Below are positions 28,198-54,874 of a stretch of DNA of 64,000 nucleotides, piece by piece (the first letter of the stretch is position 1; each line of letters starts with the position of its first letter). The DNA is from Octopus vulgaris (taxonomy: Eukaryota): positions 173,042,001-173,106,000 of the forward strand of contig OX597816.1 of assembly GCA_951406725.2 (NCBI GenBank). The letters run 5' to 3'. The notes below the pieces were generated by a model. That model was not told the DNA's origin and ran no database searches. It was given only the letters and a program-made list of their open reading frames with translations. The position numbers and the translations under genes are program-made.

Positions 28198-28601
28198 TGA
28201 ACTATTCTTCAGCAACTAGCTTCACTACGACTTTACAATCAAAGAGGACATAATATTAATTTTATTTCTTTTCCTTTTCCTTTTTTATTCAACCTTCCAC
28301 TCTTTGTATCTAACATCTAGTTTTTCCTCTTTATTTCTCTTGTACCAGCGTCCTGTTTTTTTTTATTGAATAGATAAAGTCTCAGAGCCTGAGGAACAGT
28401 CAGAGATACAAAGTGTGTTATAAAAACCGGCCTAGAGCATCTCCAATGCAAAAACTACTAGTAGCACATATCTTTATATTCTGCACTATAAATTATATAT
28501 ATATGTGTGTGTGTGTGTATGTATATATATATATATGTAGATATATGTACATGCATGCATATATATATAGATATACGTATGTATGTATATAAATATATAT
28601 A

Positions 28602-38300: not shown

Positions 38301-38680
38301 ACCAACCACATGGTTCCGGGTTCAGTCCCACTGCGTGGCATCTTGGGCAAGTGTCTTCTACTATAGCCTCGGGCCGACCAATGCCTTGTGAGTGGATTTG
38401 GTAGACGGAAACTGAAAGAAGCCCGTCGTATATATGTATATATATATGTGTGTGCGTGTATGTTTGTATGTCTGTGTTTGTCCCCCCAACATCGCTTGAC
38501 AACCGATGCTGGTTTGTTTATGTCCCCGTCACTTAGCGGTTCGGCAAAAGAGACCGATAGAATAAGTACTGGGCTTACAAAGAATAAGTCCCGGGGTCGA
38601 GTTGCTCGATTAAAGGCGGTGCTCCAGCATGGCCGCAGTCAAATGACTGAAACAAGTAAAAGAGTAAAAGAGTAAAGAGA
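38301..38680 (+). mobile_element. SINE S1, 5'-truncated
   Basis: Match to 55698-56120. Confidence 0.9.
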
Positions 38681-38719
38681 ATATATGCATACAGAGTGCA
38701 GAATGCTAAGAAGAAGCGT

Positions 38720-39088
38720 TGTACCTTACCCTGAGAGGAAGTTGCTTTCCTTCGGGGGTTGACCAGGATCCCTTTTGTTTCTCACTCCTGCATCTAACAC
38801 ATCTATGCCTCTACGGATGCTGCAGTGCACAGGAGAAGCCACATACTGATTCCTGCTTTATACTGACCTGCTAAACTACGTGAGTGAACCTGAGGGTTGG
38901 GATGCTGCAGAGTGTCCAAGATAGTATAGATTCAACAGCAAGGACGTCATCCGAGACATATCTGAAATCCGTAAGAGGAGTTTTAGAATAGACACAAGGA
39001 ATCTCAGGACTTTGAATAAACAAGGGAAGCTCGTCAACTTAATCCAGGAAGCTGATACCCTTAATACAGATATTATCGGTATATCTAT
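38720..39088 (+). pseudogene. RTE LINE 5' fragment (APE N-terminus)
   Basis: [33 protein letters not shown] resembles IGTWNVRTL..GKL...DI.GISE. Confidence 0.7.
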
Positions 39089-39095
39089 ATCTATA

Positions 39096-39161
<66 letters not shown>

Positions 39162-39403
39162 GTATGTATGTATTTATGTATGTATGTATGTATGTATGTA
39201 TGTATGTATGTATGTATGTATGTATGTATGTATGTATATATGTATGTATACCAAATATATACGTTTTATTTACTTTTTTGTACATTACTTAATCATTGTT
39301 ATATTTTTTATCTTATATTTAAACTTTCTATAATATGTAATTTTTCTAAATGGTATAATTTAATTTTTCATTATTGGATTGATAAAAGGTGGGTTTTTTC
39401 CTA

Positions 39404-39503
<100 letters not shown>

Positions 39504-44634: not shown

Positions 44635-47409
44635 CTTTCTATATTCCTTATTTTCTCGACTCTCAGTATTTTTCGTCCCCCTCCCTCTGTGCTCTGTGTC
44701 TTTCTCTATTCGTTTTTCTATCGTTACATCTCTGTATATAAAGTTCACCAATTCATCCTGTATGACGTCTCTCTTTTACTCTCCTTCTTTCTCTCTTTCT
44801 CTCTCTCTCTTTCTTTTTTTCTCTTTCTCTCTCTCTCTCTCTCTTTCGCCGCCGTCACCATCCTTCTTTCTCCCTCTTCATTTCATCTTGATTTATCGTC
44901 CTCCAAAATTTAATCGCCACAAATATCTCAGAAGCTGTCAGTCAGTTTATCTCTCTCACTCTATCTATCTATCTATCTATCTACCCACATATCATTCTCT
45001 CCTCCTTTCTGTTGCTGTCTTTACACACACATACGCATACGCGCGCGCACACACATACATATGTGCGGGAATATAGATATCCCTCTCCTTTCTCCCATCA
45101 AAACTCGCTTCTTTTACCCCTCTCTTCATCGCATTACACAACACTATTCCATTACCACCCTACTCCTCCCACTCCTTCCTCTCTCTCTTCTCTCACTCTC
45201 TCCCTCCCCTTCTATGTCTATTTTACTTTCGCCCCTGCTTCGTTCTACCACGTTATTATCTTTCCTCTTTGAAGAGTGCGCTCTTCAAAATGGTTGACCA
45301 TATATCATAGAAATTAGACAAGCCAGACTGGGCCAAACTTAAACTTCCGTAACAAACTAGATATTATTTTACAACAAACATATTCCATAGAATCAAAACG
45401 GAACAGGGGGGGAGAGGATAAAGCAAAAAAAAATAACTTATAGTAAAACAAATGAAATATCTCCAGACAAAAGCTGAAAGAGGGAAAAAAAATAGCAAAG
45501 TGGAAGATTGTTAAAAACAATTAAACCGAAAGAATTGGTTCAGTTGAAGTTTGGACAGCTAAAAAATATATATTGCCAAGAGCTAAAAAAACATAAAAAC
45601 CATGACGAAACGTATTTCTCTGTGACTGTAGAATTATTTACTTTTTACTTATGTATGGGCGTTCAGATATACAGACACACACATACACACACACATACAC
45701 ACACACACATATATTCACACAGACACACACACAGACACACACACACACACACATACATACACACAGGCACACACATACACACAGGCACATACACACACAC
45801 ATACATACACACAGACACACACACACACACATACATACACACAGACACACACATACACACACATATACACACACACATACATACACACACACACATACGT
45901 ACATATATATGTATGAGTAAATGTGTATATACAAATATGTATTTATATGTGTGTGTGGGTGTATATATATATATATACACATACACACATACACACATAT
46001 ATGTATATACATATATACACACAGACGAACACACAACACTCTCACATACATATGTGTGCACACATACATTTGCCCACGTGAGTGCACGTGGCCGTATGTT
46101 TACGTGTGTATGGAGATATATACAATATTTCTATATGTAGGAATATGTGCTTGTGTGTGTGTGTATATGTCTGTGTGTATGGAGGAAGAGAGATTTACAT
46201 ACAGGCACACTTACATACTAACGTTATACAGTATTACAGAAAACACACTACATATGTGGGAAATTTTGTCTGTGGGTGTGTTTGTGGAGTTGTTAGCTAG
46301 CTCCTCCTACATCGTTGTATCGATTTTGATGAAACTTGACACATGAGTAGAACTCATGTCTGGAAACCTCATGGCATACTCAGATTGTTGAAAAGATCGA
46401 TAATAGAGCCCCTGGAAGGAATCCTTATATATATCTAATATATTTTATTTTAAAACCAAGGGAAATAACCCATTCGCTCCTCACCAATTAAGAGAAACGT
46501 TGCTATTTTCGGCATAAGCGCAAAATCATGAGGCCGGGCGGATAGTCTAACAAATCGCGTTCGCTAAAGCGTACGAGCTGGTTTAGAGAATTACATGATT
46601 TTAACTTAAGTTTTTTCATTAAGAATATTGGTTAACTCATAAATCAAAAACTCACGGCAAAACTTTTGAAACTAAATGTTAAGTATCGTAATATCTACTC
46701 AGGTCTACTGACTTTTTCCATTTCTCCACATTAACCAGTCACAAGGTGCCTAGATACATTACTGCACTGAGGAGTAAAAGGGCTTCCAAAAGAACTGTTC
46801 GCTAGATTTAATGATATCAAAGCTAAAGAAGCCAATTTTAACGTTTTTTCTTTTTTTTTTTTTTTTTGCAAATCATTTCATTAGAAGAATAATACAAATT
46901 GAATTGCAGGTTAATATACATCTGTAGCATTATTCAAAGATGCCTATTCGAGCGTTATGCCACTCTTTCTGCAAAATCCCATCCTGCAACGACATGCTTC
47001 GCTAGAAGATGCATCTCCCTATTATGTTAACAGAGGGTTTTTCCCTACAAATAGAAAAACATAAAATAAACTAAAACAAAAACAAAATTAACAAACAATT
47101 ATCTTAAAGAGAGCTTTCAAGTTGACACATCTCAATTACTTCTAAATATTGAGAGGATGGCAAAAAATAAATAAATAAAATTGCTGCACCGTGTTTCTCG
47201 CTAAAATTAGCAAGAAAACACTTTTTCCGATTTCACTGTTGTGAAAGAACAATGAAAGTTACATGGATTTTTAGTCGACAGTAATCTGCATAATATTAAA
47301 TAATAATGAACTCGGTTTAATTTACATATATATTAATTCGTGTATGTGTGATGTATGCATATGTATATATAAATATATATGTAAATAGACTCATATATAA
47401 CTATTTGAA

Positions 47410-47497
47410 ATCGAACTCGGAATCTTGGGGTTAGTAGCCCGTGGTTAAGAGCACGGGCTACTAACTTCAAGATTCCGAGTTCGATACCAGGCAGTGA

Positions 47498-47578
<81 letters not shown>

Positions 47579-47752
47579 CATCGAAAAATACCTTAGGAAT
47601 GAGAACCCAGTTTCGAAATTCTCCCAAGACACCTGATGAAGGCTTGAGGGTATATCAGCCGAAACGTTGTGTTAACATCAAACAAGATGAGGACAAATAT
47701 CCGTCAAATGTAAACAATGTACATTACTCCTCATCTCTTAAATATAGAACTG
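47410..47752 (+). mobile_element. tRNA-head/(AAT)n/hammerhead-tail element with 5' fold-back
   Basis: Head 47441-47500 with B-box gagttcgatacc, (AAT)n 47502-47574, tail 47575-47752 matching 15919-16103 and 17321-17472. Confidence 0.8.
47628..47673 (+). ncRNA. Minimal type I hammerhead ribozyme motif
   Basis: gacac CTGATGA a ggcttgagggtatatcagcc GAA ACGT T gtgtt. Confidence 0.7.
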
Positions 47753-47779
47753 TACTGACGATATATATATATATATATA

Positions 47780-48134
47780 TTCTTTTACTTGTTTCAGTCA
47801 TTTTGACTGTGGCCATGCTGGAGCACCGCCTTTTAGTCGAAAAATTCGACCCCTTGGCTTATTCTTTGCAAGCCTGGTACTTATTCTATCGGTGTCTTTT
47901 GCCGAACCGCTAGTTACGGGGACATAAATACGCCGAGATCGGCTATTAAGCAATGGTGGAGGGACAAACAAATATATATATATATATATACAACGGGCTT
48001 CTTTCAGTTTCCGTCTACCAAATCCACTCACGAGGCTTTGCTCGCTCCGAGTCTATGGTAGAAGGCACTTGCCCAGGGTTCCATTTGCTTATGTGGTTGG
48101 AAAGCAAGCTTCTTACCATACAGTCACGCCTGTG

Positions 48135-48137
<3 letters not shown>
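47780..48137 (-). mobile_element. SINE S1, diverged
   Basis: Reverse copy; a + strand S1 tail fragment follows at 48194-48253. Confidence 0.8.
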
Positions 48138-48196
<59 letters not shown>

Positions 48197-52710: not shown

Positions 52711-53074
52711 ATGCGTGTACATAACATATATGCGTGTATTGTACGAGTTTGTGCACATTCTATGTCTTGAGTTTTTAATGTATTTTTGTATGTATATGTG
52801 CCTGTGCTTTTATGTGTGTGTATGTGTGTGTGTGTGTATGTACGGACCTGTATGCGTGCGAGCGAGCGCGCGAACGTATGTGTTTTCCCTAAATTCTTCT
52901 GATATTCATTTTTCGATATAGTTTGTCATTAACTCTGAGCCAACCCGCTTCCTGCTTTATCATGGTTTCGATTCTCGGGTGAAATCCAATTCTTGTACAC
53001 CAATAATTTTGCTGATAGCAGTCACAAAAAAAGGCATGAAAGACACCGTAATATTACGGTGTGTTTATAATATT

Positions 53075-53260
53075 AGTATATCAGTCTGCCGTTACGTTGT
53101 GAGTTCGAATTCCGCCGAGGTCGACTTTACCTTTCATCCTTTCGGGGTCGATAAATTAAGTACCAGTTGCGCACTGGGGTCGATGTAATCGACTTAATTC
53201 CTATGTCTGTCCTTGTTTGTCCCCTCTGTGTTTAGCCGCTTGTGGGTAATAAAGAAATAA
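53075..53260 (+). mobile_element. SINE S3 with Nin-domain-like centre
   Basis: gagttcgaattcc B-box; gtcgactttacctttcatcctttcggggtcgataaattaagtaccag resembles the Nin SINE domain. Confidence 0.75.
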
Positions 53261-53315
53261 GTATATCACCTAATCATTATCCACGTAAGAGAACATGTAA
53301 ACCGACACTTGATAT

Positions 53316-53517
53316 ACTCTTTTACTTGTTTCACTCATTTGACTGCGGCCATGCTGGAGCACCGGCTTTAGTCGAGCAAATCGACCCCGGGACTTATTCT
53401 TTGTAAGCCCAGTACTTATTCTATCGGTCTCTTTCGTCGAACCGCTAAGTGACGGAGACGTAAACACACCAGCATCGGTTGTCAAGCTATGCTAGGGGGA
53501 CAAACACAGACACGCAA

Positions 53518-53583
<66 letters not shown>

Positions 53584-53861
53584 CGATATATACGACTGAA
53601 AGAAGCCCGTCGTATATATGCATATATATATATGTGTGCGTGTGTGTTTGTGTGTCTGTGTTTGTCCCCCTAGCATTGCTTGACAACCGATGCTGGTGTG
53701 TTTACGTCCCCGTCACTTAGCGGTTCGGCAAAAGACACCGATAGAATAAGTACTGGGCTTACAAAGAATAAGTCCCGGGGTCGAGTTGCTCGGCTAAAGG
53801 CGGTGCTCCAGCATGGCCGCAGTCAAATGACTGAAACAAGTAAAAGAATAAAAGAGAGAGT
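53316..53861. mobile_element. Two headless S1 halves fused in inverted orientation
   Basis: Minus copy 53316-53596 and plus copy 53595-53861 meet at atatacgac/gtcgtatat. Confidence 0.85.
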
Positions 53862-53934
53862 AACAAAGGATAAATGTACGCGCGCGCATGCACATACACC
53901 CACACACCCACACACACACTTGTATATATAAAAG

Positions 53935-54180
53935 GATAAGATCCTTCCCGAGGCAATATAAACCCATAGAGCTGGTTTCCCAGTTTCTATGGTGCATATA
54001 TTCACCCCTGGAAGGACGCCAGTCCATCGTAGGATTACTCATTTTTACCAGCCGAGTGGACTGGATTAGAATAAGATGAAACGAAGTGTTCTGCTCAAGA
54101 ATACAACGCGTCGCCCGGCCCAGGAATCGAAACTACAATCTTATGTTCATGAGTCCAACACCCTAACCACGTGCCTTCAC
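53935..54180 (-). mobile_element. S2-related tRNA SINE with a different 3' half
   Basis: Reverse reads gtgaaggcacgtggttaggg...gtttcgattcctgggccgggcgacgcgttgtattcttgagcag. Confidence 0.7.
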
Positions 54181-54212
54181 ACACGCACGCACACAACACA
54201 CGCGCACGCGCA

Positions 54213-54253
<41 letters not shown>

Positions 54254-54255
<2 letters not shown>

Positions 54256-54644
54256 TCTTTACTCTTTACTTGTTTCACTCATTTGACTGCGGCCATGCTG
54301 GAGTACCGCCTTTAGTCGAGGAAATCGACCCCGGGACTTATTCTTTGTAAGTCCAGTACTTATTCTATCGGTCTCCTTTGCCGAACCGCTAAGTGACGGG
54401 GACGCAAACACACTAGCATCGGTTGTCAAGCAATGCTAGGGGGACAAACAAACACATACATATATATATATACATATATACGACAGGCTTCTTTCAGTTT
54501 CCGTCTACCAAATCCACTCACAAGGCATTGGTCGACCCGGGGCTATAGTAGAAGACACTTGCCCAAGATGCCACGCAGTGGGACTGAACCCGGAACCATG
54601 TGGTTGGTTAGCAAGCTACTTACCACACAGCCACTCCTGCGCCT
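54254..54644 (-). mobile_element. SINE S1
   Basis: Full-length reverse copy. Confidence 0.9.
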
Positions 54645-54874
54645 ATATATATATATACTTTTTATCTATTACATGTTTCAGTCATATGTCTGCAAAATTT
54701 CACTTAAAAATTGTGCAAATTTTTGAAGGTTATGCCGGAAGAAAGAATGGTGAGCCCTAAACTAGGTATGCCCAAATCGTGTGTACCTAATCTTTAATTG
54801 AAAACGCGTCAGCGCGCCAGTGAATATGTCATTAACTATACTCTTTTCTGAAAATACCCCTCCTCTTCCTTCAT

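Follow-up and report, generated by a model that had tools for sequence, protein, structure and literature searches.

Repeat units in the window

The window analysed here, 64,000 nucleotides of Octopus vulgaris DNA (contig OX597816.1), is a repeat-rich stretch of a 2.80 Gb genome. It contains three tails and two heads of one repeat unit, located by methods that included BLAST with an intact head. The unit consists of a tRNA-Arg-like head, an (AAT)n linker and a tail with a hammerhead ribozyme motif. It forms the pseudo-LTR (pLTR) of a Penelope-like element (PLE) with a reverse transcriptase (RT) and GIY-YIG open reading frame (ORF). Head and upstream coordinates such as +14 or -7 are relative to position 0, the first base of the tRNA-like segment. 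The features are as follows.

15920-16108, minus strand: tail of the left arm of the second inverted insertion, with the long 3' end
16133-16459, minus strand: 5'-truncated copy (~330 bp) of another AAT-associated repeat, inside the left-arm linker; not related to the PLE unit
16577-16646, minus strand: head with intact A-box and B-box, from +4; 5' end of the left arm
16683-17236, plus strand: full copy of the same AAT-associated repeat, inside the right-arm linker
17317-17469, plus strand: tail of the right arm, headless, with the short 3' end
47400-47441, minus strand: inverted partial head copy, the left arm of a head-to-head insertion, lacking linker and tail (BLAST of an intact head against the window)
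47441-47501, plus strand: tRNA-Arg-like head from +14, the 5' part of the pLTR; A-box mostly lost
47458-47464, plus strand: CTACTAA loop of the focal head
47477-47484, plus strand: B-box-like GAGTTCGA of the focal head (the B-box itself is placed at 47479-47488)
47502-47573, plus strand: (AAT)24 linker
47574-47754, plus strand: focal tail; makes up the pLTR's 3' part, contains the beginning of the PLE ORF and ends at the longer of two 3' end classes
47599-47754, plus strand: first ~52 codons of the RT and GIY-YIG ORF, from ATG 47599; open frame
47628-47673, plus strand: predicted minimal type I hammerhead; stem I 47628-47632 with 47669-47673, palindromic stem III
47633-47639 and 47661-47668, plus strand: hammerhead core, predicted cut after 47668
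47641-47645 with 47656-47660, plus strand: hammerhead stem II, one mismatch in the focal copy

The first-pass annotation described the focal unit as a non-coding, SINE-like retroposon. Its CTACTAA loop, its B-box, its (AAT)n run and its three tails are all confirmed in the window. The A-box is intact, as it had reported, in the copy at 16577-16646, whereas the focal head, starting at +14, lacks most of it. The segment 47410-47441, taken as part of that head, belongs instead to the inverted partial copy. The order head, linker, tail had been counted twice, but the copy at 16646-16577 carries ~330 bp of another repeat inside its AAT linker, and the tail at 17317 belongs to that insertion too, as its opposite, inverted arm without a head. 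No target-site duplication is evident at the two window insertions.

The AAT linker differs in length among copies and often hosts insertions of other repeats. One of these, an AAT-flanked repeat of ~555 bp (16683-17236 on the plus strand; 16459-16133 on the minus strand), occupies both arms of the second insertion in copies 93% alike. None of its three forward frames stays open for long. The repeat is common in a sample of arbitrary DNA and is often found in this PLE's linker. Five other linkers (L015, L023, L017, L032 and L127) hold inserted 3' ends of apparently coding non-LTR elements, which we take to be consistent with an AAT-targeting LINE (Dong/R4).

The unit belongs to an autonomous Penelope-like element

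The unit is the pLTR of an autonomous PLE, probably of the Penelope/Poseidon type, and not a free-standing SINE. The full element runs in the order tail, RT and GIY-YIG ORF, spacer of ~35 bp, head, (AAT)n, tail. Coding sequence lies upstream of the head in four loci picked by their tail. In 30 loci chosen by sequence at the end of the ORF, one of them the query itself, the ORF end is followed by a head within 260 bp in 27 cases, usually ~35 bp on, and by a tail within 400 bp in 23. Near-full-length copies have a tail ahead of the ORF as well: the motif at the junction of tail and ORF start has up to 109 exact genomic matches, and of 60 junction copies, sampled from 100 of these matches, 49 extend more than 40 nt into the ORF. 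Since the head follows the ORF and the tail both precedes and follows it, head, linker and tail together constitute the pLTR. The earlier assignment of the tail to a Penelope pLTR hammerhead therefore stands. The PLE RT/GIY-YIG machinery was also rightly named as the maker of the copies, which carry PLE hallmarks. The idea that this machinery is borrowed does not survive: head, linker and tail all lie in the autonomous element's own pLTR, so nothing is borrowed.

Nor is the unit non-coding, as had been supposed. The tail is open from ATG 47599 and is the start of the element's ORF, with which the hammerhead overlaps; the ORF of anole Poseidon overlaps its hammerhead likewise, according to the available text of PMC11167929. 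Among 12 junction copies with a full tail, two lack the ATG motif, six lead in frame into the ORF (two of these with one stop) and four are frameshifted. A candidate intron in the tail (38-47 nt, GT..AG), which on paper joins an upstream ATG to the ORF, was rejected: the unspliced frame is already open, the homologue P0005 has a peptide matching the unspliced translation, and most length variants differ by 9 nt (47 nt in 11 cases, 56 in five and 57 in one). No spliced tail joint occurs among the RNA-read joints listed, which were obtained with a reference that did not contain the ORF start. At one locus the junction of two inverted arms includes 35 nt captured from the ORF start (L007:1373-1406), which suggests that the template RNA extended into the ORF.

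The RT domain is recognised by RVT_1 above cut-off in two of four fragments, the DKG and YVDD core motifs are visible in the translations, and there are 81 longer RT homologues at E <= 0.001. Pfam gave no direct GIY-YIG match in the element's own fragments; two homologues with Pfam GIY-YIG matches, P0025 (E 1e-30) and P0050 (E 8e-9), align with the element's C-terminal 247 aa, and the alignments span those matches. No CxxC of a zinc-finger linker between RT and endonuclease was seen by eye in the translations. The element combines the features of EN+ PLEs, namely a PLE-type RT, a C-terminal GIY-YIG domain, flanking pLTRs, an optional 3' extension and a minimal hammerhead.

Linkage and shape of the copies

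Head and tail are linked throughout the genome, in agreement with the expectation of the first-pass annotation. Among 30 head-picked loci, a tail lies within 260 bp in 22, further off in four and nowhere within the locus in four; among 30 tail-picked loci, a head lies within 260 bp in 17 and further off in five, while eight have no same-strand head upstream. These eight, and the fact that other repeats do occupy the linker, are what might be expected if head and tail were distinct repeats brought together by chance insertion into AAT tracts. Most headless tails are, however, truncated arms of inverted pairs, the 22 close pairs speak for linkage, and order and spacing are fixed after the ORF. 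Chance co-insertion is refuted by the constant order of ORF, head, linker and tail, and we give it practically no credence.

Eight arms in 264 kb (the window together with 200 kb of DNA from arbitrary places) extrapolate to up to ~85,000 arms genome-wide, and corrected head counts to ~11,000. Copy anatomy was studied in 88 loci on contig C1, which remained of the first 100 hammerhead matches after two duplicates had been dropped, close pairs merged and two places left out; the set is unselected for 5' ends and biased to well-kept hammerheads. Head-to-head inverted arms are present in 55 of the 88 loci. By position, the first 100 matches include eight inverted pairs and two tandem ones. The 3' ends fall into two classes ~30 bp apart, at tail positions 144-152 (65 of 148 arms) and 173-180 (59 of 148), and the same two classes recur in reads of another species label. 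Both head-to-head arms and two 3' end classes are PLE hallmarks, as described in the available text of PMC8557442.

The hammerhead in the tail

The minimal type I form, as described in the available text of PMC4209133, has a short stem I, an extra unpaired base ahead of stem II and a palindromic stem III, and the sequence of the window's putative hammerhead fits this description. The core sequence given by the first-pass annotation, with its predicted cut after 47668, was confirmed, and folding of a near-majority copy (L004) recovers stems I and II. A 30-nt stretch of the hammerhead has 4202 exact genomic matches, against none for the reversed control. Core sites are conserved in 780 of 809 cases and flanks in 5271 of 5597, a weak difference (p 0.008, uncorrected for base composition). 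A distant relative (L327) has the same core with a different but paired stem II. Rfam, run on three short stretches including the unit, and ARAGORN gave neither a tRNA nor a hammerhead call, so that the Infernal-type search suggested earlier returned no hammerhead there; over the window, the Rfam matches listed (150 of 280) include microsatellite-driven miRNA matches.

All three window tails carry a G-to-T change in stem II (47645, 17390 and 16036), found elsewhere in two of 70 copies. Two carriers lie in one insertion and the third 30 kb off, which may reflect local conversion or a minor subfamily.

The 3' ends of the copies lie 50-85 nt beyond the predicted cleavage site, so self-cleavage does not make or define the copy ends. 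In the anole element, cleavage is dispensable for insertion in vitro (PMC11167929, available text). The octopus hammerhead would be expected to cut only as a dimer or with the help of protein, and would not be the source of the copy ends.

The tRNA-Arg-like head and the 5' ends of copies

The tRNA origin of the head, with its A and B boxes, was borne out by comparison with the genome's own tRNAs. In copy L004, the first 60 nt of the head give an ungapped alignment with tRNA-Arg(TCG) (z 9.0, 0 of 500 shuffles). Among the 25 distinct tRNA sequences compared, drawn from 30 tRNA loci, Arg(TCT) reaches z 8.4; Arg(TCG) is a candidate parent. A follow-up search for the parent brought up only near-identical relatives of the Arg(TCG) gene among its matches. 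Near-identical tRNA-Arg(TCG)-like genes form clusters at C1:130863971-130899508 and C20:5232699-5237301. In the head, the A-box and B-box occupy their tRNA positions, +7 and +52 respectively, and identity to the tRNA is 17/22 at box positions and 22/39 at the others. The cloverleaf has been lost, judging by the fold and by the lack of an ARAGORN or Rfam tRNA call.

The copies end abruptly at the start of this segment. After removal of duplicates, 77 of 146 arms reach the head and 56 get to +8. Of the latter, 42 stop within -10..+8 (0.040 per bp), and the 14 that pass -10 stop further upstream at ~0.0016 per bp, so that the wall has ~25 times the upstream rate. Intact head starts number 71. Their match to the native upstream sequence is lost between 0 and -6 in 37 of them, precisely at -7 in 16 and at -8/-9 in two; in the remaining 16 it continues beyond -21, and none loses it from -10 to -21. 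Genome-wide counts of 20-mers rise from 818 at -144 and 1014 at -39 in the spacer to 4941 at +3 in the head; the mutation correction applied to such counts is rough, and the count at -144 is biased low by the choice of reference loci.

Short copies and the element's own lineage

The first-pass annotation had proposed a separate non-autonomous unit, that is, an independent SINE or retrozyme that is transcribed by Pol III and that PLE proteins re-mobilise in trans. Several observations could be accommodated in this way. Short copies that start at the head outnumber ORF-linked ones by ~4.5 to 1 after a rough correction, the A and B boxes are intact and the sense majority has no T4 run. Divergence is also slightly lower in short copies (5.6%) than in ORF-linked ones (6.6%), the loci having been selected differently. 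Nevertheless the entire unit lies inside the autonomous element, and short and ORF-linked arms have an identical majority sequence. A comparison of 83 short with 32 ORF-linked arms, made up of 56 tests, revealed no diagnostic site (lowest p 0.03), and pairs of short copies share no excess of derived changes over short-ORF pairs (one arm per locus, 71 short and 30 ORF-linked; permutation p 0.98). The short copies form no separate lineage in this sample; with tens of thousands of copies in the genome, so small a sample may miss minor short-only subfamilies. The phylogeny has a star-like appearance, such as descent from shared masters would give.

Compared with a tRNA SINE, the unit has the head with A and B boxes; it is not a non-coding unit distinct from its partner, and the sampled arms have no source lineage of their own. 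It ends in neither poly(A) nor a LINE tail. The tandem hammerhead arrays of non-LTR retrozymes are likewise not seen, 55 of 88 loci being inverted and the first 100 matches holding eight inverted pairs to two tandem. Moreover, the short copies do not contain the downstream ORF RNA that the anole protein requires, according to the available text of PMC11167929. An independent SINE or retrozyme thus appears improbable, and the claim of a separate retroposon is not upheld: the unit is a PLE pLTR whose short copies have no diagnostic changes.

Promoter or passive head

That the short copies arise as by-products of the pLTR is highly probable, however the head itself is to be understood. We favour, at roughly even odds (about 0.5), the reading that the unit is a PLE pLTR whose tRNA-Arg-derived head acts as an internal, Pol III-type promoter and sets the 5' end of the RNA. 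Pol III transcription from the head stays plausible because 5' ends pile up at its start; we infer a start at -7 from the copy ends, and Pol III as the probable maker from the A and B boxes.

Transcription of master copies with a whole pLTR ahead of the ORF would start ~7 nt upstream of the tRNA-like segment. Next, the PLE protein would nick AT-rich DNA and begin reverse transcription inside the ORF start. In vitro, the RT of anole Poseidon initiates inside the first ~150 nt of the ORF and needs RNA further downstream (PMC11167929, available text). Internal initiation on an RNA that runs from near -7 into the ORF would give copies of ~300 bp ending at the head start. Where reverse transcription started in the 5' pLTR, it would come to the RNA's 5' end ~300 nt on, run off there and leave short, SINE-looking copies, while a start in the downstream pLTR would give long copies bearing the ORF. 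The cDNA end may often fold back or switch onto itself, producing head-to-head arms. Most short copies would be dead ends because they are without the ORF sequence past the RT start site.

A bolder version, held only tentatively, is that the PLE has taken a tRNA-Arg Pol III promoter into its pLTR and put it to use, and that Pol III makes the template, possibly for the whole element, which would then amount to a SINE in the making inside its own partner. The associated suggestion that Pol III template RNA from the captured promoter filled the genome with tens of thousands of SINE-looking copies is just as tentative. The 2572 nt sense majority contains no T4 run, where 1.5-4.6 are expected; the chance of zero is 0.01 under a mononucleotide model, 0.09 and 0.22 under Markov models and 0.15 for a synonymous shuffle of 404 codons, and G4 is absent too.

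Several findings count against the promoter reading. Uncapped Pol III RNA translates poorly, so a second RNA would be needed for the protein. Solo head arms number only 16, and four of these are at the wall. Within the tail, 5' ends cluster by eye at a small palindrome (nine of 33 at tail positions 36-41). Within 500 nt of one copy, no 26-nt fold is stronger than a native hairpin at -7..+4, and 11 junctions are symmetric fold-backs on this hairpin, a count that applies a strict pattern and leaves out loci where the pattern fits native sequence. Masters also appear scarce. Those with a pLTR ahead of the ORF are few (L266, L287 and L288); just five of 49 ORF-leading junction copies keep any head, which makes candidate masters rare, and two reach the head start.

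These findings give weight to an alternative with the same element and the same by-product origin, in which the head is a passive relic and the 5' pile-up comes from the -7..+4 hairpin or from an ordinary Pol II start. The strength of the hairpin could cause RT pausing and fold-back priming, as the 11 fold-backs would suggest, and the loss of the cloverleaf agrees with a relic. Palindromes likewise stand at the start of rotifer pLTRs (18 and 38 bp in Adineta, where inverted junctions are palindromic too), and tRNA is absent from the available text of that account (PMC3846280). By analogy with these rotifer PLEs, a native hairpin at the head start is a strong rival explanation. The one mapped Penelope promoter, in Drosophila, is internal in the pLTR and resembles TATA-less LINE promoters (PMC2377424, available text). 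Against a passive head, five arms (L145, L147, L149, L155 and L230) end at -2..-7 with a partner that starts far off in the linker or tail or is absent. A longer pairing to -14 is used by no fold-back, all 11 matches to that pattern being native ORF-linked sequence, and the A and B boxes are preserved at tRNA spacing although the cloverleaf is gone. We consider a passive head a serious possibility, somewhat short of even odds. RNA reads from three raw runs under a related species label cover the unit at equal depth in both mate directions and without a pile-up of molecule ends; they therefore have no bearing on Pol III use or cleavage.

Should the head be a working promoter, a Pol III promoter would be tied to an autonomous retrotransposon, offering a route for the birth of SINEs, which usually pair with LINEs. 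Should it be passive, the element would be an ordinary PLE with a decorated pLTR. The sharp 5' wall provides a genomic test of the internal-initiation model for PLE reverse transcription, and some tRNA-SINE calls of repeat pipelines in such genomes may be PLE pLTRs.

Relation to known elements

The element's closest counterparts are the EN+ PLEs of the Penelope/Poseidon group, namely Penelope of Drosophila virilis, Poseidon_Ac of Anolis and Pen of Adineta. As far as the available texts describe them, these have the same ORF of RT and C-terminal GIY-YIG, the same direct and inverted pLTRs with a minimal type I hammerhead over the ORF start, the same optional tail of ~30 bp, AT-rich surroundings and many solo or truncated copies, and the same palindrome at the pLTR 5' end (PMC4209133, PMC11167929, PMC3846280, PMC8557442). 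The octopus pLTR adds the tRNA-Arg-like segment with A and B boxes, the (AAT)n run and 5' ends at the segment start, and the endonuclease motif of its subclade is YKG, unlike that of the PLEs named.

Other systems share single features. In Helenus and TRIMp3, a tRNA-derived, presumed Pol III promoter likewise lies in the terminal repeat and has been proposed to stem from SINE insertion (PMC10886601, available text). These are non-autonomous LTR elements with a PBS and PPT, whereas in octopus the segment is borne by an autonomous PLE. The schistosome repeats SM-alpha and Sj-alpha also combine a Pol III-type promoter with a following type I hammerhead in a short repeat; from the available texts, they are often tandem, with a canonical hammerhead and units released by cleavage (PMC6765202; PMC8490949). 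Octopus copies occur solo or as inverted arms, extend 50-85 nt beyond the predicted cut and belong to a coding element. Animal non-LTR retrozymes are short hammerhead sequences related to PLE pLTRs and probably moved by PLEs. They form tandem arrays with a hammerhead per unit, and a tRNA head is not mentioned in the available text (bioRxiv 10.64898/2026.07.22.740005). Known already from such sources, as far as their available texts go, are pLTR hammerheads, solo and inverted pLTRs, schistosome repeats with Pol III promoter and hammerhead, PLE-derived retrozymes and tRNA in LTRs.

Octopus also has the SINEs OR1, OR2 and OK, which are reportedly of tRNA-Arg origin. They too have a tRNA-derived head, and OR1 is classed as a CORE-SINE (PMC4824008, available text). 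By description, the PLE unit is set apart from them in having no room for a central CORE domain and in that its 3' part is PLE ORF. The unit is not described in the available text of octopus repeat surveys (PMC13282606 with its text supplement; PMC8967140), nor in that of PMC4824008 and PMC2678813. The literature searched, with Repbase, Dfam and most subscription papers outside its scope, held no tRNA-derived head in an autonomous PLE pLTR and no PLE-dependent tRNA SINE. The family may already be listed, possibly as a SINE, in Repbase, Dfam, the 1994 octopus SINE paper or the sequence supplements of PMC8557442.

Relatives and other repeats of the window

Metagenome relatives were found at nine loci with 30-55% identity. 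Four of the nine have hammerhead-like motifs and none matches the A and B boxes; they are too distant to date the head. The element's words are present in runs X15-X20 under five organism labels, so the family is common to related species.

Five further stretches of the window are very abundant interspersed repeats (47761-48159, 7516-7957, 27793-28199, 38301-38686 and 53072-54673), with up to 11-27 matches per 200 kb of arbitrary DNA, and are likely to represent the genome's main SINE or MITE families. An open frame between microsatellites at 24911-25300 is like the RT C-terminal part of a non-LTR element, presumably R4/Dong-like. A short stretch at 38925-39404 on the minus strand, interrupted by a microsatellite, resembles the N-terminal endonuclease of a LINE, which we take to be of the RTE type. 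Finally, long (TACA)n-type arrays extend over 9489-13996, one of them inverted to the rest, with arms of ~700 nt.
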